Of a stretch of DNA of 52,244 bases, positions 7,061 to 52,244 are shown one piece after another; position 1 is the first letter of the stretch, and every line of letters starts with the position of its first letter. Under the pieces are notes generated by a model. The model did no database searches and was not told where the DNA came from. It was given only the letters and a program-made list of their open reading frames with translations. Both the position numbers and the translations under genes were made by a program. The DNA comes from a virus, in the IMG/VR virus record IMGVR_UViG_3300046115_000069, positions 1 through 52,244 of that record, one strand, 5' to 3'.

Positions 7061-8575
7061 TTAGAATGACTTGTCGAGTTGACCTAGCTGGAAAAAGCCG
7101 CCAGCAGGGAGGGAACGGTCTGCAAATTCACTGGCCCTGTACACATCCGCCAGGTGGCTGTTGGCGCCGAGCTTGAATACGTGCATGAGTCCGTAGCGTA
7201 GGGCATCGAGAGCGTGATCAGCCCAAGGCTGGGCTGCCTCTCTTACGTTGGTCTCCGCACGTCCCGTGTCTGGGCTGCGGTAGTTGTTGAATTCGGAGAT
7301 AAGGTCCTTGCAGGAGTGGTCAACAAACAGGCCAGGCTCCCGTAGGCTGTCAGCGTGCGACAGATCGAGTCGCGTAACCATTTCGGTAAGGTCAGCATTG
7401 TCCGACGGCTCTCGAATCTTCAGGAAGGCGTTCATGAGGTCGACACCCTCTTGCCAACCACTCTGCGCCTTGGCACCCTTACCCTCAATCGTCCCGCTCT
7501 TCGCCTTGGGGTCCGAGATGCACATATGGAAGTCACGACTTACTTCGGCGGTCGCGCCCGGGCTTGCTGCGTCACCGAAACACAGGTCAACGTGGTACCC
7601 ATCAGGGTTCGGGGTCTGCTTCATCATGTTGAGAAAGTCCCCCAACATCATGTAGCTCTTGTACCACATACGCCAAACATAGACCCTGTCGAACGGGTCT
7701 ACCTGGAACTCGACCGCCGCCATAGGGTTCGTGTAACCCCAGTCGAAAGCAATGTAGTTGCGCCAGGCAGGGTTGAAAACGTGCTTTCTTACATGGATGC
7801 TTTCCCGGAACGCTCCGTAGATCTTACCCACGAAGGCCGTGAAGTCGGCCGCGATCTCCTGCATGAACCACTCAGGCGCGGTGGTCCGCTCGATAAGCTT
7901 GATCTCGTCGTCGTCCCGACCATCAGGGTAAACATACGGGTTTTCCCACGACGGAAACTGCCACGAGTCGTGCTGCTTGTCGTCAGGGTCCTGCCCCCTT
8001 TGCCACAACTTGTAGAACCAGTTCTGGCCCTCAGGAGTGGTAGGGAAGTCTGCAGTTCCTCGTCTGTCTGCAAGCGCAGCACGGATGTATCGCTCAAAGG
8101 TGTCCTTCTTGTGCTTGGCTGCCTCACTCATGATCACATGGTCAAGGCTCTCGCCGACAAGGTTCTCTGGGTGGTCCGCGGAGCGACACTCGAGGCGGGT
8201 CTGCCAGGGAAACTCAATGTACATCGTGCCTTGCTTCTTGTTATACGCCCTCTTGACCCTACGGTCGCCACCGAATTTGAGGTCGATGATCATGGTGTCC
8301 CAGATCACTCGGAACTCTTTTTCGGCAAGATCGTACGTTGGTCCTACAATCCATTGGCGCTGCTTCGGCAACATAAGCTTGGGCTGCACGTCCATGCCAG
8401 CCATGCGACTCTTACCAAAGCGTCGTCCGCAGCAAGGCAAACGCAACCTTGCGTTTGAGTTGTGGAACAGCCACTGCTTGGGGTGCGGCTCATGCCCCAC
8501 CAACTTAAAGTACTTCGCCTTGTCGATTACCTTGTAGGACCCGCCGACTCCCTCGGTAGGCGAGTTCTTAGTCAT
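7061..8575 (-). CDS. terL: Terminase large subunit
   Basis: Walker A GRRFGKS, Walker B-like LDHVIMSEA. The nuclease half carries AFDWGYTNP, CFGDAA and the typical C-terminal ADHALDALRYGL. Confidence 0.9.
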   Translation of the reverse strand: MTKNSPTEGVGGSYKVIDKAKYFKLVGHEPHPKQWLFHNSNARLRLPCCGRRFGKSRMAGMDVQPKLMLPKQRQWIVGPTYDLAEKEFRVIWDTMIIDLKFGGDRRVKRAYNKKQGTMYIEFPWQTRLECRSADHPENLVGESLDHVIMSEAAKHKKDTFERYIRAALADRRGTADFPTTPEGQNWFYKLWQRGQDPDDKQHDSWQFPSWENPYVYPDGRDDDEIKLIERTTAPEWFMQEIAADFTAFVGKIYGAFRESIHVRKHVFNPAWRNYIAFDWGYTNPMAAVEFQVDPFDRVYVWRMWYKSYMMLGDFLNMMKQTPNPDGYHVDLCFGDAASPGATAEVSRDFHMCISDPKAKSGTIEGKGAKAQSGWQEGVDLMNAFLKIREPSDNADLTEMVTRLDLSHADSLREPGLFVDHSCKDLISEFNNYRSPDTGRAETNVREAAQPWADHALDALRYGLMHVFKLGANSHLADVYRASEFADRSLPAGGFFQLGQLDKSF

Positions 8576-12001: not shown

Positions 12002-12571
12002 ATGAGCGAAACCGAGGGATACGAGGGCGCGAAAAGCGAGGTCGTAATCAAGCTATGTCCTCGGTGCCCTCAAGTGGGCCGGATCCCAGCCAATGAGCGC
12101 GAGGTTAGCAAGTCTGGCAAGCACTGGGGGTACTGCAAGCCCTGCATGTACGAGTACCAGAAGGACCGCAGGGACGCACAGAACACTCTTTTAGAGATCA
12201 CCAAGCCCGTAGGACCTTTCGTAGCAGGCCAGATTGATCGGCGCGCAGAGATTAGCGAGGCGGAGATTAGGCATGGCAAGATTCAACACGCCCGGAGTGT
12301 GTTGGAACCCAAGCAACGTGGGCGTAAACACGGTGACAACAAGTGTCCTCGATGTCTGGGCAACCAGAGGGCTGACAACTCCGCGTACTGCACGGAATGC
12401 AGCTCCGAGTATCGCAAGGATCGACGCGAAGAGCGGATCGCCGCGCTGAATCGTGCCTTGCAGGAAGCGCAACGGTTGGAGCAGGAGAGGCGACAGGCCA
12501 TTAACCAGGCGTACTTCGACGCGTTCGGCCACTGGCCCACAGTCAAGACCACTGAGGAGGAAAACGAATAG
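12002..12571 (+). CDS. Tandem Zn-ribbon protein (189 aa)
   Basis: Two copies of CPRC-x(n)-YCxxCxxEYxKDRR. Visibly lower G+C than its neighbours. Confidence 0.7.
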   Translation: MSETEGYEGAKSEVVIKLCPRCPQVGRIPANEREVSKSGKHWGYCKPCMYEYQKDRRDAQNTLLEITKPVGPFVAGQIDRRAEISEAEIRHGKIQHARSVLEPKQRGRKHGDNKCPRCLGNQRADNSAYCTECSSEYRKDRREERIAALNRALQEAQRLEQERRQAINQAYFDAFGHWPTVKTTEEENE

Positions 12572-14748: not shown

Positions 14749-15117
14749 ATGACCAGATGTTGTAAGTGCAAGTGCGAACTGACGCTGGAGAACTCTTCGG
14801 CCAGCGATGCCTACTGTAGGCTTTGTCGAAGCGCATACAACAGCCAGGCAGACGGTTCTAGACGACGCATGCACAACATGCTCTACAGAACAGGCCTTAG
14901 GTTCACGCTTGAGGAACTGGTGGCCTTCGCAGAGACGTGTGATGGATTCTGCGACATTTGTAGAGATCCGATCACAGGACGTAACAGGCACCTAGACCAT
15001 GATGCCAATACGGGCAAGCTTCGCGGCTGGCTTTGTGGCAATTGCAACATGGGCATAGGCAAGTTTAAGGATGACCCGCAAAGGCTATCCGCAGCCATTG
15101 CCTACTTGACCCACTAA
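14749..15117 (+). CDS. Recombination endonuclease VII-type nuclease with an N-terminal Zn ribbon
   Basis: CDICRDPITGRNRHLDHDANTGKLRGWLCGNCNMGIGKF matches the Endonuclease_7 pattern. Lower G+C. Confidence 0.85.
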   Translation: MTRCCKCKCELTLENSSASDAYCRLCRSAYNSQADGSRRRMHNMLYRTGLRFTLEELVAFAETCDGFCDICRDPITGRNRHLDHDANTGKLRGWLCGNCNMGIGKFKDDPQRLSAAIAYLTH

Positions 15118-15888: not shown

Positions 15889-16227
15889 GTGAGGCGCGAG
15901 TTCGAAACTCGCCAGAGGTACGTGCACATCTTGTCAAATGTTGATGCAGAAGCACGTAAGGCTACTTGCTCTGAGTGCGGACCTGTGACTATTGTACATC
16001 AAGGAAAGGGTCGCTATAAGTGTACTGTAGCTCGAAAGGCTTACCATAAGCCATACAGAGCTTACGTTGACAAGCAATGTGCAAAATGTAACTTCGTGGC
16101 TGTCGATCCATGCCAGTTGGATGTGGACCACAAGGACGGTAACCATCAAAATAACGAGCTGTCAAACCTTTGGACGCTGTGTGCCAACTGTCACAGGCTA
16201 AAGACGCTGCGCCCTGATTTGTTTTGA
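15889..16227 (+). CDS. HNH endonuclease
   Basis: DVDHKDGNHQNNELSNLWTLCANCHRLKT. N-terminal CSEC...C Zn ribbon. Visibly low G+C. Confidence 0.85.
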   Translation: MRREFETRQRYVHILSNVDAEARKATCSECGPVTIVHQGKGRYKCTVARKAYHKPYRAYVDKQCAKCNFVAVDPCQLDVDHKDGNHQNNELSNLWTLCANCHRLKTLRPDLF

Positions 16228-16235
16228 TTTCTTGC

Positions 16236-16308
16236 GCACCTGTAGTTCATCGGCTGAACGGAAGCCTCTAAAGCTTCGCGTAAGTGGGTTCGACTCCCAC
16301 CAGGTGCT
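16236..16308 (+). tRNA. tRNA with anticodon CUA (amber suppressor type), copy 1
   Basis: Hand fold: GCACCTG/TA/GTTC-ATCGGCT-GAAC/G/GAAGC-CTCTAAA-GCTTC/GCGTAA/GTGGG-TTCGACT-CCCAC/CAGGTGC/T. All stems are Watson-Crick. U8, A14, GG, U33 and A37 are present. Anticodon CTA at 16268-16270. Confidence 0.85.
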
Positions 16309-16394
16309 CGTGTAACAACACCGTCGAGGAAACCGACGTGAAAAAACCATGACCCGGGCGGGTACAAAGCTACGAGCCTAAGCCCGCCCGCCTA

Positions 16395-16466
16395 GCACAC
16401 GTAGCTCAATGGATGAGCAGGCGCCTCTAAAACGCTTGGACGAGGGTTCGATTCCCTCCGGGTGCA
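16395..16466 (+). tRNA. tRNA with anticodon CUA (amber suppressor type), copy 2
   Basis: Hand fold: GCACACG/TA/GCTC-AATGGAT-GAGC/A/GGCGC-CTCTAAA-ACGCT/TGGAC/GAGGG-TTCGATT-CCCTC/CGGGTGC/A. One A.G mismatch in the acceptor and a C.A at 31-39. Anticodon CTA at 16427-16429. Confidence 0.75.
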
Positions 16467-16599
16467 CGGAAAGGTAAGAGACAAAGCGTCCCAGGCATCC
16501 TCGGATGGTTTAGGGAGACAGCGGGAGTGACGTCCCTCGCCTCGGCTGTATGTAGGGTACCATTACCTGTGGCCGGACAAATTCTTACCTTTGCACCAA

Positions 16600-27349: not shown

Positions 27350-27380
27350 CGTACAACAAGTGAAGAGAGGGGGTGAATGC

Positions 27381-29573
27381 ATGACTACTCCGGACGCTTT
27401 GAGGGCTTTCTTTCAAACAACATTCGGCAAGAGTCAAGGAGTCCTTGGCTTTGCTGTGATGTCGATCGACAAGAAGGAATTCAAGGAGTACTTCTTCGAC
27501 TGGCCTCGGGACATGAACGAGATCATTCGTTGGGTCGACCTGAAACGCATTGAGTACAATGTGTACTTCTGTCCCCAGTTGTTGGAAAGCCGAGAGCGTA
27601 CCAAGGATAATGTCAAGGCATGCACTAACATTTGGGCAGACTTGGACGCATGTAGTCCCGACAAGCTGCTCATGGAACCAACGTTCAGCATCGAGTCTTC
27701 GCCAGGACGTTATCAAGCCCTGTGGTGCTTGGACGATCCGGTGGACCCGCTGACCGCGCAGGACCTCGCGATGCGAATCGCGTACTACCATGCAGGTCAA
27801 GGCGCTGACCGAAGCGGATGGGATCTCACACAGCTGCTGCGAGTGCCTTCCACCTTCAACTACAAGTACTCACCCCACAGTTTCGAAGCGCCCCAAGTAA
27901 CCGTTCTAAAAGTTAACAAGGTCAAGTTTCACCTTTCAGACTTTGAAGTGTACCCTCCAGTCAAAGGGACCAAAGAGCTTACACTGCCACTACCCGAAGC
28001 AGGAGAGCTTCCGGACGAAGAACCACTAGACATCATGCAACGTAACCGGTACCGTTTGAACCCTCACGCATTCGGTTTGTTCTCCCAGGAACCAGCAACC
28101 AAGAGCTGGTCGGAAGCATTGTGGCGCCTTCTTATGTTCTGCTTTGAGGCAGGATTTACTAGGGAGGAAGTGTACGTTGTCGCAAACAAGTCAGCATGCA
28201 ACAAGTACTCACGTGACGGTAAGCCATCGACGTACCTCTGGCGCGATGTCTGTAGAGCCTTCCTTCGACACCACGAGAACATCAACTCAATCGTCACAAG
28301 TTCTGAACAAGAAGCAATCATTGACGATGGGGAGATCAAAGACCTTGCGGCCAACGATACCTTCGTGGAGCAATATATTCGATGGGCTTCGAGCGTTGGT
28401 GATGCAGCCACGCAGTACCATCAGGCAGGAGCCTTTGTTATCTTGTCTAGTATACTGTGCGGTAGCATTCGAGTGCCTACTTCTTTCGGTGCTATCATCC
28501 CGAATCTTTGGTTTATGATCCTTGCTGACACCACCCTCACCAGGAAGACCACCGCGATGGACATGGCGATGGACATGGTGTTGGAAGTCGACGAGGATGT
28601 GCTCCTAGCTACGGATGGAACCATTGAGGGCATGATGCGTTCCATGATGATGCGACCGGGGAAGCCTTCGGTGTTCCTGAGAGATGAGTTCACTGGACTC
28701 ATGGAACAGATCACCAAGAAGGACTACATGGCAGGCACAGCTGAGCTCCTGACGAAGCTGTACGACGGCAAGCCGCAGAAGCGTGTCCTATCGAAGGAGG
28801 TGATCGATGTTAGGAGGCCGCGCCTAGTTCTCTTTGCTGGAGGCATCAAGGATCGAATGCAGTCACTGTTGACGTATGAACACGTGAGCTCAGGCTTCAT
28901 GCCTCGCTTCATCTTCATCACTGCTGAGTCGCAACCTAGCAAGGTGCAGCCTCTCGGGCCTCCATCCATTCGAAACATGGGTGAGAGGGACTTCATTCAG
29001 GGACGCGTTCGAGCAATCTACGAACATTACAATCGTGACACGACCTTGACTCTGAAGGAACAGAACCTCACAGCAACAACGACAATGCAGTGGGACACGG
29101 AGTTGACTCCCGACGCATGGGCACGTTATGGTAAGTTCGAGAAGGCCATGACTATTGCAGGGACCAGCTCCGAGAGAGCCGACCTCATGGTGCCTACGTA
29201 TACGCGTCTGACGATCTCAGGTCTCAAGGCGGCAGCGCTGCTAGCCGCCAGCCGCAAGTTCGCTGACGAGAAGGTTGTTATCGAGGAGGGAGACATCGTC
29301 CGTGCCATCAAGTACGTTTCTGAGTGGCGCGAGTACGGGAACAACGTACTCAACGGCATTGGCAGGACAACGCTTGAGAAGGACTTGGAAAAGGTGCTGG
29401 GATCCATCGTTCGTAATCCGGGAATTACCCGATCGAAATTGATGCAGAACCACCACCTCACATCACGTACTGCTGATGCAACATTTTCCACCCTCGAACA
29501 ACGAGGACTCATTACGCGGACGCGTAGTGGTACTGCCCAAACGTTCTACCCAATCTTGGCAGGAGTAGTATGA
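27381..29573 (+). CDS. DNA primase (RepB'/prim-pol-like N-terminus) fused to a DUF3987-type helicase-like domain and a C-terminal wHTH
   Basis: GAGAGGGGGTG RBS. VYFCPQL...NIWADLDAC...IESSPGRYQALWCL...LLRVPSTFNYKY resembles plasmid/phage RepB-type primases. 730 aa. Confidence 0.6.
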   Translation: MTTPDALRAFFQTTFGKSQGVLGFAVMSIDKKEFKEYFFDWPRDMNEIIRWVDLKRIEYNVYFCPQLLESRERTKDNVKACTNIWADLDACSPDKLLMEPTFSIESSPGRYQALWCLDDPVDPLTAQDLAMRIAYYHAGQGADRSGWDLTQLLRVPSTFNYKYSPHSFEAPQVTVLKVNKVKFHLSDFEVYPPVKGTKELTLPLPEAGELPDEEPLDIMQRNRYRLNPHAFGLFSQEPATKSWSEALWRLLMFCFEAGFTREEVYVVANKSACNKYSRDGKPSTYLWRDVCRAFLRHHENINSIVTSSEQEAIIDDGEIKDLAANDTFVEQYIRWASSVGDAATQYHQAGAFVILSSILCGSIRVPTSFGAIIPNLWFMILADTTLTRKTTAMDMAMDMVLEVDEDVLLATDGTIEGMMRSMMMRPGKPSVFLRDEFTGLMEQITKKDYMAGTAELLTKLYDGKPQKRVLSKEVIDVRRPRLVLFAGGIKDRMQSLLTYEHVSSGFMPRFIFITAESQPSKVQPLGPPSIRNMGERDFIQGRVRAIYEHYNRDTTLTLKEQNLTATTTMQWDTELTPDAWARYGKFEKAMTIAGTSSERADLMVPTYTRLTISGLKAAALLAASRKFADEKVVIEEGDIVRAIKYVSEWREYGNNVLNGIGRTTLEKDLEKVLGSIVRNPGITRSKLMQNHHLTSRTADATFSTLEQRGLITRTRSGTAQTFYPILAGVV

Positions 29574-30520
29574 GCACCGAATTCATCGACCTTCCCAAGC
29601 CTACTGCAGGCGCCTTCGATCCGTTGAAGTACCACGACAGCTGCGCAATCGTCAGCGGTGGGATGGACAGCGTGACGCTGGTCTACGACATGGTCAGCCG
29701 CGGCATGAAGCCACACCTTCTGTCCTTCAACTACGGACAGCGGCACAAGAAGGAGCTAGCGTTCGCGCACATTGCCGCGAAGACCTTTGGCCTACGACAC
29801 GACATCATCGACCTCAGTAGTCTGACGGGGCTCATCAGCAACTCGGCCCTCACCTCCGATGTCGCTCGACACACCAAGCCTATGGCGGCACAGGAGTGGT
29901 CGGCCGGCAAGGAAGCCGGGTGGGTCAGCACGCCGCACATCGAGGTGCCTGAGGGACACTACGCCGCTGACAACATGGCGCTGACGGTTGTTCCCAATCG
30001 GAACATGATGATGCTCAGCATCGCTGGGGCCGTCGCAGTCAACTACGGCTACAGCCAGATCGGCACGGGAGTCCACACCGGCGACCACTACCAGTACCCG
30101 GACTGCCGTCCAGACTTCGTCTACGCTGTTGGGCGCACCTTGAAGAAGGGCAACGAAGGCTTCCACAAGTTCTTCCTCGATGAGGACCTACGCGACGAGC
30201 TTCGAAGCACCAAGAAGGTCCTCGGCCAGGACATTCAGGGCGACGAGGGCATCCTACCCATCCTGGCGCCCTACCTAGAAGCGTCCAAGCAGGACATCGC
30301 CGTTCGTGGCTTCGAGCTGGGCGTGCCGTGGCACCTCACCTGGTCGTGCTACAAAGGCGAAACGAACCACTGCGGACGGTGTGGCACCTGCGTCGAACGT
30401 CTCGAGGCGATCGCCGGTGCCCAGAAGGTCATGGTCGAACGGTACCCCGCTACTGCCAACGTGTGGGCTGACTATACCGTCTACGACGACAGTGAGTACT
30501 GGAAGGTCGTGACCAAGTAA
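29570..30520 (+). CDS. queC: 7-cyano-7-deazaguanine (preQ0) synthase QueC, with insertions
   Basis: SGGMDSVTL PP-loop, FNYGQRHKKE, and C-terminal Zn site CYKGETNHCGRCGTCVERLEA. At 316 aa it is longer than a typical QueC. Confidence 0.9.
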   Translation: MSTEFIDLPKPTAGAFDPLKYHDSCAIVSGGMDSVTLVYDMVSRGMKPHLLSFNYGQRHKKELAFAHIAAKTFGLRHDIIDLSSLTGLISNSALTSDVARHTKPMAAQEWSAGKEAGWVSTPHIEVPEGHYAADNMALTVVPNRNMMMLSIAGAVAVNYGYSQIGTGVHTGDHYQYPDCRPDFVYAVGRTLKKGNEGFHKFFLDEDLRDELRSTKKVLGQDIQGDEGILPILAPYLEASKQDIAVRGFELGVPWHLTWSCYKGETNHCGRCGTCVERLEAIAGAQKVMVERYPATANVWADYTVYDDSEYWKVVTK

Positions 30521-30708
30521 TGGGCGGCGACGTCTTCTACCCCGTTCCGTCCGACGACAATATGTCGGACCAGGAGATTCGATTGGAGGCCGCTCAGATC
30601 GTTGCACAGGTTTGGCAGGGCTCCAACGCGACGTTCGACGACCATGGCGACCCCGCCCTCATCGACGAGATGAAGCGCGTCGCGCAGTACATCCGGGAGG
30701 GGAACTGA
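30520..30708 (+). CDS. Hypothetical protein embedded in the deazaguanine cluster (62 aa)
   Basis: TAATG coupling to queC and TGATG coupling to queD. Confidence 0.55.
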   Translation: MGGDVFYPVPSDDNMSDQEIRLEAAQIVAQVWQGSNATFDDHGDPALIDEMKRVAQYIREGN

Positions 30709-31094
30709 TGTTCCGCATCGCCAAGGTGTTCGAGTTTGAGGCATCGCACCAGCTGCATGGTCTGCCGGAAGAGCACCAGTGTGGCCGACTCCACGGACAC
30801 AGCTACAAGATCGAGCTGACGTTCGTCGGCAGCGTCCTAACCGATGAGGGGTGGCTGTTCGACTTCGGACAGATGAAGACCTTCAAGCAATTCGTCGACG
30901 AGCGACTCGACCACCGGCACCTGAACGATGAGATGGCACAGCCGACGTCGGAGAACCTGGCACGGTTCCTATACGACACGGCCAGTGACATGCTCTACAG
31001 CAACGCCTTTGGTCTCGTGGCCGACGAGGTCTACCTGGAGAAGGTCCGCGTCAGCGAGACGGCGAAGACCTACGCGGAATACTTTGGGGTGTGA
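30708..31094 (+). CDS. queD: 6-carboxy-5,6,7,8-tetrahydropterin synthase QueD
   Basis: FEFEASHQLHGLPEEHQCGRLHGHSYKIEL. Confidence 0.9.
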   Translation: MFRIAKVFEFEASHQLHGLPEEHQCGRLHGHSYKIELTFVGSVLTDEGWLFDFGQMKTFKQFVDERLDHRHLNDEMAQPTSENLARFLYDTASDMLYSNAFGLVADEVYLEKVRVSETAKTYAEYFGV

Positions 31095-31095
31095 C

Positions 31096-31833
31096 ATGCT
31101 ACGTGTGAACGAGATCTTCGGCCCAACGATCCAAGGTGAAGGCACTACTGCCGGACGGCACTGCCTCTTCGTTCGCGTCGCCGACTGCAACCTCGAGTGC
31201 AAGTGGTGTGACACGCCGTACACCTGGGCCTTCACCAAGGAGAAGGCTGCGAAGCATGACTCAGGCACTCGCCACGACAAGCTGCTGAACTCGATTGAGA
31301 TGTCAACAGCTGACATCATGGACGCGCTACTCGAGAACTGGATGATCTACTCACAGCCGACAATCGTCGTCATCTCGGGCGGCGAGCCCCTGATGCAGCA
31401 GCCAGGTCTGGCCGAGTTGCTACAGGAGCTCAAGGAGCTCAAGCACGAGACACACATCGAGACGGCTGGCACCATTCAGCCGTCGGAGATCCTCGATCAG
31501 CACGTCACACAGTACAACGTTTCGCCCAAGCTGACGAACAGCGGCAACCGCCTTGCGAAGCGGTACAAGCAGGACGTCCTGAACTGGTTCTCGGACAGCG
31601 TCAAGGCCTGGTTCAAGTTCGTCGTGACGCATCCGGAGGACCTTGACGAGGTTCGTGACATCGTCAACATGTCGGAGATCGATCCTCGACGAGTCATGGT
31701 CATGCCTGAGGGTACTACCATCGACAGGAACGTTGAGGTCGGCCGGAAGGTCATCGATGAAGCCTTGCAGCTTGGCTACGGCTTGAGCTTCAGGTCGCAC
31801 GTGCTGTTGTGGGGTGACGGGCGTGGCAAGTGA
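31096..31833 (+). CDS. queE: 7-carboxy-7-deazaguanine synthase QueE (radical SAM)
   Basis: EIFGPTIQGEGTTAGRHCLFVRVADCNLECKWCDTPYTW. Confidence 0.9.
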   Translation: MLRVNEIFGPTIQGEGTTAGRHCLFVRVADCNLECKWCDTPYTWAFTKEKAAKHDSGTRHDKLLNSIEMSTADIMDALLENWMIYSQPTIVVISGGEPLMQQPGLAELLQELKELKHETHIETAGTIQPSEILDQHVTQYNVSPKLTNSGNRLAKRYKQDVLNWFSDSVKAWFKFVVTHPEDLDEVRDIVNMSEIDPRRVMVMPEGTTIDRNVEVGRKVIDEALQLGYGLSFRSHVLLWGDGRGK

Positions 31834-31879
31834 TCGTCATGAGCACGACGGCTTTGCAGGGCACAACTCCACACGGGCA

Positions 31880-32266
31880 TTGAATCCCTCGTTTGGCAAC
31901 GCACGGACGAAGCTGCAGCTGGAGAACCAGCTTCGACAGTTCAGCCCTGACTGGTGGCTCAAGCAGACGCCACCTAAGGGTGCGCGCAACGCGTACCACT
32001 GCAGCACGTGTGGTCAGTACATCGTCACGATCGACATGGACAAAGGCACGACGCCTATTCGGATGGGCTGCAAGGCGACCGAGGGCTGCAACGGTGCGTC
32101 GGTATCGTCAGGCTATCCGCCAGAGCCGATGCCAGCGGAGCTCGAGTCCTGCCGAGTGTTCGAGTGGTATCGCCCGGAGGCTAGTGCCTTGGGGCTATTC
32201 CACGAGGACCAGCTCGTCGACGAGTACATCCGTGCTGGCGGTCTACTACTAAGGGAGCGCGAATGA
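31880..32266 (+). CDS. Hypothetical Zn-ribbon protein embedded in the deazaguanine cluster
   Basis: ORF open from 31814 (GTG). TTG 31880 follows the CTCCACACGG motif. CSTCGQY...CKATEGC. Start uncertain. Confidence 0.5.
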   Translation: MNPSFGNARTKLQLENQLRQFSPDWWLKQTPPKGARNAYHCSTCGQYIVTIDMDKGTTPIRMGCKATEGCNGASVSSGYPPEPMPAELESCRVFEWYRPEASALGLFHEDQLVDEYIRAGGLLLRERE

Positions 32267-32321
32267 AGTACCTCTGGTATAGTATCAAGTTCGCCTGGGA
32301 CGTGAATAGGAGGGCACTGGT

Positions 32322-32969
32322 ATGAGCGACGACATCCTGCGAGCAGCAGGCTTCAGGTCATTGGATGAGAGCATGTTCATTCCGGGACCGGCAAAGGCAC
32401 TAACGTTCTCCGACGTGATGGACCCTGCAGCGGAGTGCCTGATAGCCCACACGGGCCTCGACATGAGCACGGAGCACGGCAAGGACACGCCGAAGCGGTT
32501 CGCGCAGATGCTGGAAGACCTGACGGCGTGCAAGTACTCTAGCGGCGAGCACATGGAAACTTGCATCAAGTGGAAGACGTTCGAGTCGACCAACGACGAG
32601 ATGATCGTGGTGCAGGACATCACCTTCACCAGCGTCTGCAACCATCACGTGGTGCCGTTCATGGGCGTTGCGCACGTCGCCTACGTGCCTCACCGCAGGA
32701 TCGCAGGCCTCTCTAAGTTTGCCCGGGTGGTGCGGCACTTCGCCCGACGCCTCCAGGTCCAGGAACAGCTGACAACTGACATCGCGGACTACTTGGGTGG
32801 GCACCTGGAACCTGCAGGCGTCGGAGTCATCATCAAGGCGGAGCACCTCTGCATGACCATTCGCGGTGTGGAGTCTCCGGGAACGAAGACCACAACGTCT
32901 GCCATGCGTGGCGTGTTCGCCGATCACGCCAGGACGGCCAAGGCCGAGTTCCTCAGCTTCATCCGGTAG
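32322..32969 (+). CDS. folE: GTP cyclohydrolase I
   Basis: VCNHHVVPFMGVAHVAYVPHRRIAGLSKFARVVRHFARRLQVQEQLT. Confidence 0.9.
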   Translation: MSDDILRAAGFRSLDESMFIPGPAKALTFSDVMDPAAECLIAHTGLDMSTEHGKDTPKRFAQMLEDLTACKYSSGEHMETCIKWKTFESTNDEMIVVQDITFTSVCNHHVVPFMGVAHVAYVPHRRIAGLSKFARVVRHFARRLQVQEQLTTDIADYLGGHLEPAGVGVIIKAEHLCMTIRGVESPGTKTTTSAMRGVFADHARTAKAEFLSFIR

Positions 32970-32993
32970 TCGCCATGCCTACCGGATCGCCAG

Positions 32994-33021
32994 GCTCGCG
33001 TTCGCCCTGCGGAACGCGAGC
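32994..33021 (+). terminator. Hairpin GCTCGCGTTC-gccctgcg-GAACGCGAGC
   Basis: 10-bp perfect stem between folE and the MazG-like gene. No U-tract, so it may be an attenuator or a processing site. Confidence 0.45.
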
Positions 33022-33116
33022 TGCCTATCAATGGCACATCAGGGGCAAGACTGTGCCGTGCGAACGTTGTAGTGCTGCCAATGCACTATACGAAAAGCTA
33101 CGAAAGAGGGCGAAAC

Positions 33117-33587
33117 GTGGAAATCGTTGACCTGATCGACACAGCACTAATGGACAGTGAGCGTTGGTTCCCTGACAAGGCCCATGAGCCTTTCTTCGTC
33201 GCAGCCTGCATGGCCGGCGAGGCTGGTGAAGTTATCAACCTAATGAAGAAGGTGGAACGCGGGACGCACACATGGACACCTGAGATGAAGACAGACGTGG
33301 CCGAGGAGATCGCTGACGTCTTCACCTACATGCTCGGGCTCTGCGGAGCTCTCGAGATCAATCTCGAGGAGGAGTACCACAAGAAGCGGAAGGCGAACGA
33401 CATCCGCTTCTCGGCCCGACGTGCACTGACTGAGGAGGCCATCACCAGCCTGACGCAGGTCATCCGACACGCAGGCCCGCCCATGGTCGTCGACCTCGAG
33501 GACCGCAACCGTCGACACCAGGACGGGCTATTCCGTTCGCCGGGCGAACGGTGCATGCGCACCAAGTGCTGGTGCGTTACAGCGTGA
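33117..33587 (+). CDS. mazG: MazG-like nucleoside triphosphate pyrophosphohydrolase
   Basis: AGAGGG RBS before GTG 33117. GEAGEVINLMKKVERG and EEIADVFTYMLGL helices. Confidence 0.75.
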   Translation: MEIVDLIDTALMDSERWFPDKAHEPFFVAACMAGEAGEVINLMKKVERGTHTWTPEMKTDVAEEIADVFTYMLGLCGALEINLEEEYHKKRKANDIRFSARRALTEEAITSLTQVIRHAGPPMVVDLEDRNRRHQDGLFRSPGERCMRTKCWCVTA

Positions 33588-33871
33588 GCGACGAGGTCGA
33601 CACGCCGACTGCGTTAATCGAAGAGGCCAGCAACGCCTTCGACACCCTCTGCGAAGAACGACATGTGATGGGATCCGCCAAGTACGGTCCCGTCAAGTTC
33701 CTGACGATCAACTCCATCGAGGAAGCAATGGCTGAGGTCCTCGACCTGGCCAACTACGCACGGTACACGTTCATCAAGCTGTGGCTACTGAACAGGCAGA
33801 TGCAGGACATCATCCCGCAGGAGAACCTTGGCACCAACAGCTTCGTGCCGAACAGCAAGGATGGTACATGA
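33584..33871 (+). CDS. Small all-alpha protein, possibly a second MazG/NTP-PPase-like protein (95 aa)
   Basis: GTGA overlap start. ...ERHVMGSAKYGP...EEAMAEVLDLANYARYTFIKL. Resemblance is weak. Confidence 0.4.
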   Translation: MSDEVDTPTALIEEASNAFDTLCEERHVMGSAKYGPVKFLTINSIEEAMAEVLDLANYARYTFIKLWLLNRQMQDIIPQENLGTNSFVPNSKDGT

Positions 33872-34680
33872 AAGTAGCCCTCATTCCCCCATTGGGTTGG
33901 GAATCCTACCTTGCACAGTCCACAGGCATCTTGATGGCATTGGCCCTAGAGACCTGCATCGAGAGCATGAACTATCCAGCAAGCATGCGTCTCGTTCGTG
34001 GTACAAGCAAGGCCCTCTTGATCCTCGACAACGGTGCCGCAGAAGGTCAGCAGGCCAAGAACGGCGCCATGAACAAGTTCGCACAGCACCTAGGAGCTCA
34101 CGAGCTCGTCCTGCCTGACGTGCTGGGATCACGCATGGGGACAATCGCGAAGGTGCATGAGTACTTCCGGTACACCAAGTGGGATACCGCTCTCACCTAC
34201 ATGGGTGTGGTACAAGGCGACAGCGTCCGACACGCACAGCAGTGCATTAGGGACTACGCCGGCATGCAGGTGCGCAGTTTCCCAGAGTCGCCCGAAGTGC
34301 TGCAGCCGATCAAGACGCTCGGCATCCCTCGACGTCTGATCCAGACCACCGAGGAGTTCTCAGTTCGTATCGACTTGGCGAACTGGATCACCGAACACTA
34401 TGGACGTCGCTTCGAGATCCACTTTCTGGGCGCTGCAGGTGTGTGGCCCCAAGAAGTCAAGTACGCAGCCAAGTACGCACCACAAGTCCGCTCGATCGAC
34501 ACGTCGTTGCCGTTCGTCTTCGCCCACCACAACGTCGACCTCGCGGCGATGACGTCAGCTCGACCCCAGACACGCAAACTCGAACGGCCGACGGGCTACA
34601 TGGTCGGCAGCCTGGTGAACAGGAATCCGACACTCATCCAGTCGAACATTGACACCTACCTGGCCTGGGCAAGGAGCTAA
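33868..34680 (+). CDS. dpdA: DpdA-like DNA (7-deazaguanine) transglycosylase, TGT fold
   Basis: The strand pattern LILDNGAAEG / LVLPDV / GVVQG / LGIPR / HFLGAAGVWP / VRSIDTSLPF parallels the TGT blocks DSGGFQ / ..D.. / IVQGG / IGGL / LLGVG.P / D.FD...PT. Lies in the que cluster. Confidence 0.7.
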   Translation: MKVALIPPLGWESYLAQSTGILMALALETCIESMNYPASMRLVRGTSKALLILDNGAAEGQQAKNGAMNKFAQHLGAHELVLPDVLGSRMGTIAKVHEYFRYTKWDTALTYMGVVQGDSVRHAQQCIRDYAGMQVRSFPESPEVLQPIKTLGIPRRLIQTTEEFSVRIDLANWITEHYGRRFEIHFLGAAGVWPQEVKYAAKYAPQVRSIDTSLPFVFAHHNVDLAAMTSARPQTRKLERPTGYMVGSLVNRNPTLIQSNIDTYLAWARS

Positions 34681-34681
34681 C

Positions 34682-37078
34682 ATGAGCGAGGACCTTCTTC
34701 TCCCACCTACTTGGATTCGTCGCCACCCCAAGGCAGTGTGCGAAGAATGTCCTCTGAACGTTCCGGAGAACGGCTTCGTCCCTTCGGTAATGCCCAAGGG
34801 GGCCTCGTTGGCAATCGTCGGCGAGGCCCCCGGCTTCCAGGAGACAGCCTACAAGCGGCCGTTCATGGGACCATCAGGCCAACTCCTGAAGCGAGTGTTG
34901 GCACACCACGACATCCCCGTCCAGGATGTGATGCTAACCAATGTATGCCTATGTCGTCCTCCAGACAACGCGACTCCTCCTAAAGCTGCCATCAACGCGT
35001 GTCGTCCGCGCCTCCTTACAGAGCTCGCCGAACAACGGATTCAAGATGTTGTTGCTCTTGGGTCGACCGCGGCACACGCTCTCATTGACAGTACTAGTTC
35101 TATCACCAACCTTCGCGTTGGTGCCCCTAAGCCACCCACTGTCTCACTCGGCGGATCGACTATTGAAAGAGTTGTTGCAACGTGGCACCCTGCGTACTGT
35201 CTACGCAGCGCTGACAATTTTCCATCGTTCGTCACTGACGTCGGCAAGCTAAAGGAGTCACAACGTGAGCCTTGGAGTGAACCTCGGTACCAAGTATTTG
35301 ACGATCCTGACGACGCCCTCGCCGCTATTGCTGAACTCGAACTTGTTACGGACACACTCGTCGTTGATATTGAGGTCGGTATTGACAAGGACGAGTCCTT
35401 CTTCCACCCTAACGAATTTGACATGCTCTGCGTGGGACTCGCTTACGCAAAAGGGCGAGTCGTGGTCATTGGTCAGATTGCACTTACCTTCCAACGAGTT
35501 CGAGATGCACTCGCCCAACTGCTGCGGCGAAAGAGACTTGTCGCGCATAACGGTAAGTTTGACCTCGCAGGTCTCCAGCCAATCTGCGGGACCCTTCAGC
35601 TATGGTTTGACACTATGCTCGCATCCTACGCACTCGATGAACGCCCTGGAAATCATGGCCTTAAAGTCCGAGCTGTCGAAGATTTAGGTGCGCCGAAGTA
35701 CGACGACGAGATCAAGCAGTACATTCCCAAGGGGGACAAGAACTATGCCAACATCCCCCGACCTATTCTGTATAAATATAACGCCTACGACGTTGCGTGC
35801 ACGTGGGACCTATACGAGTTGTTTGTCGAAAGACTCGAGCTTAGGAACCTGCGGCGGGTTCACGACATGCTTGTTGCGGCTAGCAATCAACTCATGTTCC
35901 TCGAACTCAACGGAATCGCCTTCGACCTCGTCTACAACTTCCAACTCCAAGGCGAGTACAGGGAACGTCTCGCAGAGATCGAAGGCAAGCTAGACGCCAT
36001 CGTCAATGCTGCCACGGAGGGCATTCAGCCCTTCATCAACCCACGATCGCCAAAGCAGATCAAAGAGTTCTTATCTTCTGTGGGCATCATCGTTGAGTCA
36101 ACGAACGTTGCCACGTTGACACTTGTCAAGACGAGAATCTCTCCCAGGTCGTACGCGGGACAGTTCATCAACACGCTTCTGATCCACCGTAGAGAACAGA
36201 AGTTGTTCTCTACGTATGTAGTCGGACTGGTCAAGAGAGTCTACCGTGGACGCATCTATACCACCTACATGCTGCACGGGACAACGTCAGGTCGCCTAGC
36301 TAGTCGCAATCCTAACCTGCAAAACATCGTTCGAGACAAGGCCATTCGTAAGCAATTCGTTGTCAGTCGCGTTGGGAACATATTCATCCAGGCTGACTAC
36401 AAGCAGGCTGAACTCCGAGTCATGACCACCCTAGCGAAGGATGAATACTTCCGTGGCATCCTCGCCGACCCCGAAGCTGACCTCTTCACTGAGTTGGTAT
36501 GCCAGCTATACGGCATTGACAGGGACCAGGCGCTTGACGGTTCGGCGCAGTCGAAAGAAATGCGGATTCGTATCAAGGCCTTCGTGTACGGTTTGGGTTA
36601 CGGCCGTGAGGTCAACTCCATCGCCAAGGAATTCAAGATTCCGTTTAGTGAAGCTCAGGTACTCCGCGACGGCTTCTTCGACCTCATTCCCAGCATTGTT
36701 CGTTGGCAGCACAATGTCAAGGCGATTGTACATAAGACTGGTCGGCTGATCACACCATTCGGCCGACAGCGCCGCTTCCACCTAATCACCGACCAGAATA
36801 GGAGGGACGTTGAGAACGAAGCATTGTCGTTCCTGCCTCAGTCCACTGCCTCCGACATCTGCCTGCGAGCGTTCACAAATGTGCGCCCGCTGCTTAAGGG
36901 TCTTGCTTACGTTCGTCTTACCATCCACGATGCGTTGGTGGTCGAGTGCGCTGAGGATCGACGCGACGTGGTTGGCGATATCCTCACCACTGCCATGGAG
37001 GCTTCAGGTCGCCAGTTCACCGACTATCTTCCTTTCGCCGCCGGCCTCAGCTATGGCAAGTCTTGGGGGGACCTGTGA
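34682..37078 (+). CDS. polA: Family A DNA polymerase with an N-terminal family-4 UDG-like domain and a 3'-5' exonuclease
   Basis: UDG domain: CEECPL, GEAPGFQETAYKRPFMGPSGQLL, CLCRPPDN, WHPAYCLR. Exonuclease: VVDIEV. Polymerase: TSGRLASRNPNLQNI, IQADYKQAELRV, RIKAFVYGLGYG, IHDALVVE. Confidence 0.9.
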   Translation: MSEDLLLPPTWIRRHPKAVCEECPLNVPENGFVPSVMPKGASLAIVGEAPGFQETAYKRPFMGPSGQLLKRVLAHHDIPVQDVMLTNVCLCRPPDNATPPKAAINACRPRLLTELAEQRIQDVVALGSTAAHALIDSTSSITNLRVGAPKPPTVSLGGSTIERVVATWHPAYCLRSADNFPSFVTDVGKLKESQREPWSEPRYQVFDDPDDALAAIAELELVTDTLVVDIEVGIDKDESFFHPNEFDMLCVGLAYAKGRVVVIGQIALTFQRVRDALAQLLRRKRLVAHNGKFDLAGLQPICGTLQLWFDTMLASYALDERPGNHGLKVRAVEDLGAPKYDDEIKQYIPKGDKNYANIPRPILYKYNAYDVACTWDLYELFVERLELRNLRRVHDMLVAASNQLMFLELNGIAFDLVYNFQLQGEYRERLAEIEGKLDAIVNAATEGIQPFINPRSPKQIKEFLSSVGIIVESTNVATLTLVKTRISPRSYAGQFINTLLIHRREQKLFSTYVVGLVKRVYRGRIYTTYMLHGTTSGRLASRNPNLQNIVRDKAIRKQFVVSRVGNIFIQADYKQAELRVMTTLAKDEYFRGILADPEADLFTELVCQLYGIDRDQALDGSAQSKEMRIRIKAFVYGLGYGREVNSIAKEFKIPFSEAQVLRDGFFDLIPSIVRWQHNVKAIVHKTGRLITPFGRQRRFHLITDQNRRDVENEALSFLPQSTASDICLRAFTNVRPLLKGLAYVRLTIHDALVVECAEDRRDVVGDILTTAMEASGRQFTDYLPFAAGLSYGKSWGDL

Positions 37079-37132: not shown

Positions 37133-37327
37133 ATGGTGAAAACCAAATTCATCGACACGTGCGATGGCGGTAAGGAGTACGAGATGGATCACTGCCCGCT
37201 ACTCCAATTCAAGATGTTGATCCATGGCCTATGGGGTAGTCGCCGCGTCATAGACGTGATACTGAACGTGAACCACGAGGAGCCACGGCAGACCATCTTC
37301 CTGGGGTTGGTGAACATCCATGCCTAG
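37133..37327 (+). CDS. Hypothetical protein (64 aa)
   Basis: AGGAGG just upstream (tight spacing). TAG stop. Confidence 0.45.
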   Translation: MVKTKFIDTCDGGKEYEMDHCPLLQFKMLIHGLWGSRRVIDVILNVNHEEPRQTIFLGLVNIHA

Positions 37328-37640
37328 GGGCAACGTGATGGAAGTTGGCACCGAGCGTCGGGCGCCGAACGGTTACTGGTACGTCAAGACCGAAGACCGC
37401 GGCTGGGTGCTGAAGCACTGGCTGGCCTGGGAGAAGTACAACGGTCGCAAGGTCGACAACACCAAGGAACAGATCCGCTTCGCCAACGGTAAGAAGGAAG
37501 ACTTCAGCCCTGAGAACCTCCTCTGCATCCCCAAGGGCAAGGTTAGGATCCGTCAGAAGTTGGCCTCGCTGTATGCACAACGTGATGACGTTGCTGCACA
37601 GATCGAATACTACGAGAAAGGCCTGGCGGAAGAGAGCTAG
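37320..37640 (+). CDS. Degenerate HNH_3/AP2-like homing-endonuclease-related protein
   Basis: NGYWYVK...LKHWLAWEKYNG...IRFANGKKEDFSPENLLCI follows the HNH_3 layout, but the catalytic His positions are replaced. Confidence 0.5.
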   Translation: MPRGNVMEVGTERRAPNGYWYVKTEDRGWVLKHWLAWEKYNGRKVDNTKEQIRFANGKKEDFSPENLLCIPKGKVRIRQKLASLYAQRDDVAAQIEYYEKGLAEES

Positions 37641-37800
37641 AGCTCTAGTGCTGAGCGAGAGCGTTCCTTAGCATTTGTGCATACTTAGACCTTAGTTAGA
37701 CAGAAGGAATTACGCTCAGCGCTACTTACTATAGCAGCAAGATCGCAAGTATCTAATTGCGATCTAAGCTTGTACGGACCTTCGGCCAAGGCTCCACACG
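37641..37800 (+). repeat. Structured intergenic repeat E3
   Basis: TAGTGCTGAGC and box TTGTGCATACTTAGAC (37675-37690). Hairpins GCTGAGCG/CGCTCAGC and AGATCGCAA(37740-48)/TTGCGATCT(37757-65). Ends with CTCCACACG (37792-37800). Confidence 0.8.
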
Positions 37801-37817
37801 CACATAGGAAGGGCGTC

Positions 37818-38234
37818 GTGCGCATCATCACAGGAGACAGAGGCAGCGGTAAGACTGAAGCCATGCTGAACTGGTTCCTCGACCCGTTCAACGGCTTCGG
37901 CAAGAGGCTGATCATCGTTCCCAACATGGAAGAGCAGGCGTACGTTCAGCAGCGAGTTCGATCCTTCGGACACACGCACAGAATCCCGGCCGTTGACATG
38001 ACGCACGCCCATCGCCGCGTGGTAGTTTGGGGCCCAGAGGTCCGCCGCGTGACCATGGGCATGGACATTCAGGAAGTGTGGGTGGACAACATGGACACCA
38101 TCATCGCCCAGGAGCTTCGACTTCACATCCTGCGTGAGAAGTTCACCTTCACCATGACCGATCCTGTCGAGACCGAACACATCGTCCTTGGCGGGTCCAC
38201 GATCAAGAAGGTCGAGGGTAAGCCAGGTGACTGA
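37818..38234 (+). CDS. Small P-loop NTPase (138 aa)
   Basis: AGGAAGGG RBS 4 nt before GTG. Walker A GDRGSGKT, Walker B-like EVWVDNMD. Confidence 0.6.
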   Translation: MRIITGDRGSGKTEAMLNWFLDPFNGFGKRLIIVPNMEEQAYVQQRVRSFGHTHRIPAVDMTHAHRRVVVWGPEVRRVTMGMDIQEVWVDNMDTIIAQELRLHILREKFTFTMTDPVETEHIVLGGSTIKKVEGKPGD

Positions 38235-52114: not shown

Positions 52115-52244
52115 CTAGACCTCCTCGTCCGGGTAGCTCATGAGGCGGACCGTGAGCTCGACGTCATCCGGCAGGTTGTCCTGTAGGAGCTGCACGCCTT
52201 TGATCCGCTGGAAGCTCTTGGCAATAGTGCCTTCGAGCTGCTGG
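52115..52244 (-). CDS. 3' part of the junction-spanning small late gene (same gene as 1-207)
   Basis: TAG stop at 52115-52117. The sequence 52118-52244 duplicates 1-127. Confidence 0.6.
   Translation of the reverse strand, partial: QQLEGTIAKSFQRIKGVQLLQDNLPDDVELTVRLMSYPDEEV
52118..52244. repeat. Terminal overlap copy B (identical to 1-127)
   Basis: Exact 127-nt identity with the window start. Confidence 0.97.

Follow-up and report, generated by a model that had tools for sequence, protein, structure and literature searches.

A preQ0 gene cluster with a predicted DpdA3-family transglycosylase lies between the primase and polymerase genes of an uncultured phage

The IMG/VR viral record IMGVR_UViG_3300046115_000069 (52,244 bases; referred to below as the window, i.e., the whole stretch of DNA that was analyzed) carries, at positions 29570 to 34680 of its (+) strand, a cluster of genes for the synthesis of 7-cyano-7-deazaguanine (preQ0) that ends in the gene for a DpdA3-family protein, a gene set expected of phages that modify guanine in their own DNA. 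The cluster lies between a primase/helicase gene (27360–29573, an open reading frame [ORF] of 737 amino acids [aa]) and a gene for a family A DNA polymerase with an N-terminal family 4 uracil-DNA glycosylase domain (UDG-PolA; 34682–37078), which form its upstream and downstream boundaries, respectively, and this is the position that the original prediction had assigned to it. All of the genes named in that prediction were recovered on the (+) strand at the same positions, together with the tight coupling it had described (ATGA, TAATG, TGATG, GTGA, and ATGA overlaps at the gene junctions), the first of these being the overlap of the primase stop codon with the QueC start codon.

By family models and diagnostic motifs, the identities of QueC, QueD, QueE, and FolE are unambiguous (E-values of 1e-31 to 1e-61), and the matches to PF06508, PF01242, the QueE families, and GTP cyclohydrolase I were all strong. 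QueC, the preQ0 synthase (29570–30520), matched PF06508 (1e-48), phrog_1550 (9e-54), and TIGR00364 (3.7e-43), with a TIGR00364 score of 147.4 bits against a cut-off of 150.3. It is a long form of 316 aa that, compared with the QueC of Bacillus phages, is extended at both termini and interrupted by two inserts. Canonical QueC proteins (PF06508 cluster 1) carry an SGGxDS PP-loop and a C(x)8CxxCxxC zinc motif (PMC13329287); here, the PP-loop reads SGGMDS (residue 29) and the zinc motif CYKGETNHCGRCGTC (residue 260) has the form C-x7-C-x2-C-x2-C, with a spacer of 7 where 8 is canonical. QueD, the 6-carboxytetrahydropterin synthase (30708–31094), matched PF01242 (5e-31) and TIGR03367 (8.8e-26, above the cut-off) and carries the CxxxHGH motif as CGRLHGH. 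QueE, the radical-SAM 7-carboxy-7-deazaguanine synthase (31096–31833), matched phrog_2076 (5.6e-61), TIGR03365 (1.5e-26), and PF04055/PF13353, with several QueE equivalogs matching at 1e-22 to 1e-26, and its cluster motif CxxxCxxC is present as CNLECKWC. Lastly, FolE, the GTP cyclohydrolase I that would take the first step from GTP (32322–32969), matched PF01227 (3.9e-60) and NF006826 (8.5e-59, above the cut-off); its gene is preceded by a strong AGGAGG ribosome-binding site and ends in a TAG stop codon. The formation of preQ0 from GTP by these four enzymes is an established pathway (PMC10516641, PMC6884629), and the window enzymes would accordingly be expected to convert GTP via CPH4, CDG, and ADG to the free base preQ0. 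None of QueF, ArcS, Gat-QueC, DpdL, DpdM, or DpdN was detected when the cluster and the larger genomic ORFs were searched for known families, and the absence of the first three, which had been noted before, therefore holds in these searches.

Between FolE and the DpdA3-family gene lie two genes for small all-alpha proteins. The first encodes a MazG-like NTP pyrophosphohydrolase (33117–33587); its ORF opens at 33072, and 33117 is its likely start because this position best fits the homologs and the ribosome-binding site. As a single sequence the protein scores below the Pfam cut-offs, while PF03819 was matched by 23 of 23 family members, and a profile of these 23 sequences matched the PDB entries 2q73 (3e-12) and DCTPP1/RS21-C6 (8e-11) and, weakly, the MazZ protein of phage S-2L (0.011). 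Its invariant motifs, GE.GE (E32 and E35) and E61..D64, are those expected for metal binding, and the protein shares PHROG 229 with CGPG_00068 of Cellulophaga phage phiST, so that the MazG-like assignment appears sound at the family level. The second gene (33584–33871) overlaps its neighbors by GTGA and ATGA and encodes a 95-aa protein, here called u106, whose start was set from homolog alignments and ribosome-binding sites. An AlphaFold model predicts two long helices in a hairpin (predicted local distance difference test [pLDDT] of 73), in keeping with the small all-alpha protein that the original prediction had proposed at this place. No Pfam or fold match was found for u106, and its profile aligned to the MazG family with an hhalign probability of 17%. 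Its sole outside similarity is a 27-residue match (E-value of 0.004) to AF_0060 (2p06), an entry named only as a hypothetical protein, which we take to be a member of the all-alpha NTP-pyrophosphatase superfamily. Possibly, u106 is a degenerate MazG-like half-domain or a partner subunit.

The last gene of the cluster (33868–34680) encodes a 270-aa protein for which a tRNA-guanine transglycosylase (TGT) fold had been claimed. Its AlphaFold2 model, built from a 49-sequence alignment, is a confident TIM barrel of eight beta-alpha units (pLDDT of 95.6; predicted template modeling score of 0.93). A Foldseek search of predicted viral structures (BFVD) returned as its top match the 259-aa protein M4SLA5 of phiST (E-value of 3e-15; template modeling [TM] scores of 0.77/0.80; root mean square deviation [rmsd] of 3.5 Å). 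Strong viral matches (TM of 0.72–0.77) were confined to three DpdA3-like proteins, and among the matches ranked below them, annotated queuine/tRNA-guanine transglycosylases from phages and archaeal viruses were over-represented. In the phiST record HQ634192, this protein is the product of the 259-aa gene CGPG_00065 (45600–46379) and was named DpdA3 by Cui et al. 2023 (PMC10516641), and hhalign aligned the family of the window protein to CGPG_00065 over 237 columns with a probability of 99.1% (E-value of 5e-19) at an identity of ~19%. In addition, DUF6610, the Pfam family of DpdA4, was weakly matched by 17 of the 49 family members (0.0026 or weaker), and PF23859 was matched by one of them (0.067). 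On these profile and structure comparisons, the protein is a member of the DpdA3 family.

Invariant residues of the 49-sequence alignment comprise D54-N55-G56, E79, D84, P154, R167, H185, G188, E196, R208, D211, S213, P215, R240, N260, and W267, and D54, D84, Q116, H185/G188, and D211 are invariant residues placed at the C-terminal ends of strands. The order of motifs is the same as in Escherichia coli Tgt (this protein/Tgt: LDNG/TDSGG, LPD/FDE, VVQG/IIQG, HLLG/YLMG, and DTSLP/DCVMP), with the three invariant Asp residues on strand 3 (D54, in LDNG), strand 4 (D84, in LPD), and strand 8 (D211, in DTSLP). In Salmonella DpdA, Asp95 is the general acid/base, Asp130 recognizes the base, and Asp256 is the nucleophile (PMC10164549); going by that description rather than by a superposition, D54, D84, and D211 would be their positional equivalents. 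The protein is therefore best described as a predicted transglycosylase that belongs to the TGT/DpdA superfamily by remote homology. Its own lineage is large: a word-indexed collection of 5.8 billion sequences held 171 close homologs, none of them functionally named or with a Pfam domain, and a hidden Markov model (HMM) scan of 1.84 billion representatives of 50%-identity clusters returned 5,074 clusters at an E-value of ≤1e-3 and 1,108 at ≤1e-30.

Next, we compared the gene neighborhoods of DpdA3 relatives, using 80 IMG/VR loci taken from 179 confirmed ones together with four metagenomic contigs from an exact-protein look-up, all scanned with iterated HMMs built from the window proteins. Synteny was counted over the 53 loci in which the sequence upstream of the DpdA3 homolog is 5.5 kb or longer. 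Some of these loci are near-duplicates and hence not independent events; identities to the window protein ranged from 27 to 41%. QueC and FolE were present in all 53 loci, QueD and MazG in 52 each, PolA in 51, the primase in 50, u106 in 49, and QueE in 45; in the window itself, QueC, QueD, QueE, and FolE are located within 4.3 kb upstream of DpdA3. The shared order was always primase, QueC, QueD, QueE, FolE, MazG, u106, DpdA3, and UDG-PolA, and its recurrence in ~50 of the 53 loci places the arrangement far beyond chance. Because the MazG-like protein and u106 are almost never separated from DpdA3 (u106 always standing between the other two), we regard both as belonging to the module. As a side observation, QueE is missing from eight of the 53 loci, and a sub-clade without it (L006, L048, L051, L055, L057–L059, and L063–L065) keeps QueC, QueD, FolE, MazG, u106, and DpdA3, with FolE directly after QueD; the sequence of L052 ends just upstream of QueD. 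Phages of this sub-clade would need a host QueE or a different intermediate.

The same architecture was found in cultured phages, namely Weizmannia phage Youna2 and the Bacillus subtilis phages BSP7 and BSTP5/8/10/12, whose DpdA3 homologs carry a hypothetical-protein label or a wrong annotation. Specifically, the lineage HMM found BSP7_057 at 2e-45 and a protein of Chryseobacterium phage MA9V-3 at 2e-43 and also recovered the phiST protein; within the first 50 kb of CP220 it gave no match. BSP7/BSTP5-12 and Youna2 share with the window the primase, QueC, QueD, QueE, FolE, small genes, a DpdA3 homolog, and PolA, in a module that is not annotated as DNA modification. Unlike the window, however, these Bacillus and Weizmannia carriers have a short-form QueC and a split PolA without the UDG domain, no MazG or u106 was detected in them with the lineage HMMs, and BSP7 and Youna2 carry a thymidylate-kinase-like P-loop gene (phrog_761) directly upstream of DpdA3.

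Like the window, published DpdA3 phages (PMC10516641) encode a TIM-barrel protein of the DpdA3 family that is ~260 aa long and has no zinc site. In phiST, the neighboring genes (QueD, QueE, FolE, MazG-like, ..., DpdA3, polymerase) come in the same order as in the window, and QueC is encoded by immuto_2-6A as well; the slot directly upstream of DpdA3, which holds u106 in the window, is occupied by a P-loop kinase-like protein in phiST. What sets the window apart is a QueC without QueF, DpdL, or DpdN, a combination not represented among the chemically tested phages, and an expected base of dPreQ0 or dADG rather than dDG or fdPreQ1. More distantly, in phages with DpdA1 or DpdA2 (9g, CAjan, Rosebush, nt-1, and iggy) and in bacterial DpdABC systems, the same preQ0 genes feed an enzyme of the TGT superfamily, with the three catalytic Asp residues and an anti-restriction role (predicted for the window) in common. 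Those systems differ from the window in that DpdA1, DpdA2, and bacterial DpdA match Pfam TGT/DpdA models and keep a CXCX2CX22H zinc site (PMC10164549), neither of which is true of the window protein; furthermore, DpdA1 and DpdA2 modify 0.1–30% of G at sequence motifs, and bacterial DpdA needs the DpdB ATPase. Systems of this kind have been known since 2019–2023, and the window adds a divergent member that combines DpdA3 with QueC in the absence of QueF. The conserved MazG and helical-protein neighbors, together with the kinase-like genes of sister lineages, are a new comparative observation.

The cluster is thus probably a module with which the phage puts a 7-deazaguanine base in place of guanine in its own DNA. 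After synthesis of the free base, the TIM-barrel DpdA3 protein would exchange guanine for preQ0, with D211 as the nucleophile, D54 as the general acid/base, and D84 and Q116 reading the base, and the modified DNA would resist restriction enzymes. Given that QueF, ArcS, and Gat-QueC were not detected, dPreQ0 is the base to be expected, with dADG as a possible alternative, which makes the earlier proposal of "dPreQ0 or an unknown derivative" a reasonable one. Replacement of 100% of G has been reported for the DpdA3 phages phiST, CP220, and immuto_2-6A (PMC10516641), and since the tested DpdA3 phages replace all G, the extent is probably high here as well. Palindromes are not avoided in the genome (mean z of +0.05 for 6-mers and +0.10 for 4-mers), with only GGCC (z of −3.3) and CTAG (z of −3.6) depleted among them; protected DNA would fit this lack of avoidance but is supported by it only weakly.

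As for the route by which the base enters DNA, we tentatively favor an exchange on deoxyguanine nucleotides before replication, with MazG removing dGTP and supplying dGMP. MazG-type dNTP pyrophosphatases are a hallmark of pre-replicative replacement pathways, such as those with the T4 dCTPase and the S-2L MazZ. The hydroxymethylcytosine system of T4 (gp56 dCTPase, gp42, and gp1 kinase) and the dZ system of S-2L/phiVC8 (MazZ, DatZ, and PurZ) offer a functional analogy only: as in the window, a dNTP pyrophosphatase gene adjoins a gene for a non-canonical-nucleotide enzyme and a polymerase, and one base is fully replaced there, but the base-converting enzymes are not homologous to DpdA3, whose action on nucleotides we infer. 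Evidence from the neighborhoods points in the same direction. MazG is joined to DpdA3 in all but one of the 53 loci and is also encoded by phiST, and in four other cultured lineages a small P-loop dNMP-kinase-like gene lies directly upstream of DpdA3. These genes fall into two different families, Pfam AAA_18/AAA_33 for phiST CGPG_00066 (46381–46860) and the MA9V-3 gene (6528–6998 of the fetched locus) and phrog_761 "thymidylate kinase" for BSP7_056 (6339–6902 of the fetched locus; 1e-15) and the Youna2 gene (7318–7869 of the fetched locus; 1.5e-9), and all four proteins have an N-terminal Walker A motif, which suggests that DpdA3 works with nucleotide-pool enzymes. No homolog of these four kinases was found in the window. 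Moreover, expression of DpdA3 in E. coli gave no DNA modification, and the authors suggested that other enzymes may be required (PMC10516641); cells infected with CP220 were reported to contain the ADG nucleoside in their cytoplasm, and for those phages a route via modified dGTP has been proposed (PMC10516641, PMC6884629). It is quite possible that DpdA3 is a deoxynucleotide transglycosylase that swaps guanine for preQ0 or a related base on dGMP/dGTP, in concert with MazG, kinase, and polymerase steps. In that case, the MazG-like enzyme would both clear canonical dGTP from the pool and provide dGMP. Phosphates would be added back to the exchanged nucleotide, in the phiST, MA9V-3, BSP7, and Youna2 lineages by the dNMP-kinase-like enzyme, and the polymerase encoded next to DpdA3 would make DNA with full substitution, with u106 as a required partner of MazG or DpdA3.

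The published model takes the presence of a DpdA to imply post-replicative exchange on DNA (PMC10516641). Applied to the window, it would mean the same module and product, with guanine exchanged for preQ0 on double-stranded DNA after replication and with MazG and u106 as house-cleaning fellow travelers, and we consider it only slightly less likely than the exchange on nucleotides. Polynucleotides are the substrates of every characterized member of the superfamily, namely the bacterial, archaeal, and eukaryotic TGTs, bacterial DpdA, and phage DpdA1 and DpdA2 (PMC10164549, PMC6884629, PMC10516641). Nor is the small size of the window protein an argument against such a substrate, since some DNA-modifying phage DpdA proteins are ~250 aa long (e.g., a 251-aa Mycobacterium phage entry), and the window has no recognizable dNMP kinase beside DpdA3. 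However, replacing every G by base flipping on duplex DNA would be without precedent, given the 0.1–30% reached by DpdA1 and DpdA2 (PMC10516641), and the adjacency of MazG, the kinase-like genes of the four other lineages, the cytoplasmic ADG nucleoside, and the inactivity of DpdA3 in E. coli all tell against exchange at the DNA level. The isoelectric points of DpdA3-like proteins, examined as a proxy for DNA binding, ranged from 4.5 to 9.5 and were uninformative.

Several observations weigh against guanine replacement by a transglycosylase, whichever the route. The phage is uncultured, and its predicted modification (what the enzymes do, which base is inserted, how much of the G is replaced, and on what DpdA3 acts) is deduced from the genes. 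DpdA3 has been argued to be unlikely to use preQ0, and transglycosylase activity has yet to be demonstrated for any DpdA3 protein, the experiments in E. coli having failed (PMC10516641). The 33868–34680 product matched no Pfam or NCBIfam TGT/DpdA model, and its only PHROG match was a weak one (E-value of 2e-4) to a family without an assigned function. PDB sequence searches with the single sequence or the family profile gave nothing relevant, the best matches (MDP-1 phosphatase and Dlg guanylate-kinase domains) being judged spurious, and the best 150 matches of the cluster-representative scan were close relatives only, with no bridge to TGT. When aligned by hhalign to E. coli Tgt alone and to a six-sequence bacterial TGT alignment, the family gave probabilities of 0.3% and 2.4%, respectively, both profiles being shallow. 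The TGT/DpdA zinc site and the large beta8/alpha8 insertion are absent from the protein: no alignment column has Cys in more than 51% of the sequences, the only conserved His is H185, and the region that follows strand 8 is modeled as a 40-residue coil. Finally, the PDB fold search is not discriminating, as it ranks psicose/tagatose epimerases as high as TGT. The call of a DpdA-like transglycosylase in the original prediction stands by way of DpdA3 (the phiST profile match, the predicted structure, and DUF6610), whereas the searches with PF01702 and the DpdA HMMs that had been proposed as a check found nothing. Since our own comparisons with TGT were not significant, the superfamily link rests on the published HHpred match of phiST DpdA3 to PF01702 (98.8%; PMC10516641) and on the agreement in motifs and positions.

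If the TIM-barrel protein were instead, e.g., a sugar-phosphate isomerase/epimerase or an Endo IV-like apurinic/apyrimidinic (AP) endonuclease, the Que genes would serve another purpose or a host enzyme would insert the base. D-psicose/tagatose 3-epimerases, which led the PDB fold search (E-value of 9e-7; TM of 0.50) ahead of tRNA-guanine transglycosylases (4e-5; TM of 0.55–0.58), and the AP endonuclease family 2 proteins among the viral fold matches would fit such an enzyme, as would the lack of a significant direct profile match to TGT and of a demonstrated DpdA3 activity (PMC10516641). We nevertheless consider this explanation improbable: a TM score of ~0.5 with an rmsd of at least 7 Å reflects generic TIM-barrel similarity, the strong fold matches are DpdA3-like only and are followed by annotated transglycosylases, QueC and FolE accompany the gene in every one of the 53 loci, the motif order and strand positions agree with the catalytic residues of TGT/DpdA, and the phiST protein has its published match to PF01702. 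Still less probable is that the cluster supplies preQ0/queuosine precursors for a tRNA modification that tunes phage translation, with no DNA modification at all, for although the same four genes serve queuosine synthesis in bacteria and the phage carries its own tRNAs, the family searches found no QueF, QueA, QueG/H, or tRNA-type TGT, both phage tRNAs have CUA anticodons and not those of the GUN type, into which queuosine is inserted, the cluster has the primase on one side and the polymerase on the other and is linked to DpdA3 throughout, and no Q-specific genes were present in any phage surveyed (PMC6884629).

Beyond the genes named in the original prediction, the cluster contains three small ORFs (30520–30708, 31880–32266, and 32975–33130, all on the (+) strand). 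The first, a putative 62-aa ORF coupled to its neighbors via TAATG and TGATG, had no family match and no homolog in 86 related loci. The second, whose ORF opens at 31814, lies between QueE and FolE and encodes a Cys4 zinc-ribbon-like protein of ~128 aa without a Pfam or PDB match. Only 11 homologs were found, all hypothetical and ~127 aa long, in which the four Cys residues and an EWYRPE...GGLLLR motif are invariant, and only one of the 53 related loci contained it, as is the case for an accessory gene limited to a sub-lineage. The Cys4 protein could be an extra modifying or regulatory factor, possibly one that makes a further base derivative in this sub-lineage. The third is a WhiB-like/zinc-ribbon ORF of 51 aa that matched only the C-terminal part of phrog_12112 (5.6e-8), has no counterpart in the related loci, and is probably outside the pathway.

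The window has identical 127-base ends (1–127 and 52118–52244) and is therefore taken as a complete genome, circularly assembled/permuted or terminally redundant. Its minus strand encodes the large terminase, portal, head protease, tape-measure protein, and minor tail protein, while a long plus-strand block holds the replication genes (helicase, exonuclease, Sak4-like annealase, a single-stranded DNA-binding [SSB]-like protein, primase, and PolA), a structural and replication gene content that indicates a siphovirus-type phage. Homologs of the primase/helicase in related loci carry PF16793 RepB_primase and PF13148 DUF3987. UDG-PolA, the start of which was placed at 34682 from homolog alignments and ribosome-binding sites, matched PF00476 (4e-59) and PF03167 (9e-25); the UDG domain keeps the GEAPG and HPA motifs, as read from the ORF translation, and the fusion is also found in most related loci. 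A family 4 UDG domain on PolA has already been described for some phage PolA subfamilies (bioRxiv 10.1101/2025.03.26.645540). Located 3′ of UDG-PolA are an HNH endonuclease (37320–37640) and a 154-aa protein (37770–38234, (+) strand) with a Walker A motif (GDRGSGKT) and no family match; of 54 related loci, 20 have it in the corresponding place after PolA/HNH. Considered as a candidate dNMP kinase, this P-loop protein could not be linked to the DpdA3-adjacent kinases.

With respect to the host, a search of 185,579 species genomes found no relative, and no nucleotide match to the 5.1-kb cluster was found among GenBank phages. The window polymerase has an identity of ≤34% to any cultured phage polymerase, the closest by bit score being those of Curtobacterium and Arthrobacter phages. 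Similar CxxC...CxxC zinc-ribbon motifs were read from the translations of small early ORFs at 12002–12571, 14749–15117, 15889–16227, and 32975–33130 on the (+) strand, one of which matches PHROG "WhiB-like" families. Together, the WhiB-like zinc-ribbon ORFs and the nearest polymerases give a weak hint of an actinobacterial host, and a host among the Bacteroidota or Campylobacter is improbable.

The two phage tRNA genes (16236–16309 and 16395–16467, (+) strand; found with ARAGORN and scoring 53.6 and 57.7 bits with the Rfam tRNA model) are distinct from each other, and their CUA anticodons make them amber suppressors. TAG ends 19 of 72 crude gene calls, FolE included, and in-frame TAG codons break up none of the long ORFs, so that this does not look like classic stop-codon recoding, judging from the gene calls. 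The frame past the FolE TAG is open to the MazG stop codon (32967–33587), and amber suppression would give a FolE-linker-MazG fusion of ~420 aa. Such a read-through product was rejected: FolE and MazG are in different frames in two relatives (L003 and L004), and because the in-frame arrangement is not conserved, it is probably due to chance.

These results imply that DpdA3-type modules are not limited to a few marine and Campylobacter phages but are carried, too, by Bacillus and Weizmannia phages that are easy to grow, and that the DpdA3 family found here is a very large lineage of ~50-kb phages, with more than 5,000 clusters that are all labeled hypothetical. Sequencing may under-sample the genomes of such phages or call them wrongly, and the genomes may resist methods that depend on restriction. 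Of the 7-deazaguanine insertion enzymes, DpdA3 is the one least well understood, the sole subfamily tied to complete G replacement, and one that has never been active in a test system. If exchange does take place on nucleotides, DpdA3 phages would be the first case of 7-deazaguanine DNA made by a pre-replicative route, and such a route would account both for the 100% replacement seen in DpdA3 phages only and for the inactivity of DpdA3 alone in E. coli. The MazG-like pyrophosphatase and the 95-aa helical protein of the window, as well as the dNMP-kinase-like genes of other lineages, are candidates for the missing factor, and they make the choice between pre- and post-replicative insertion directly testable.

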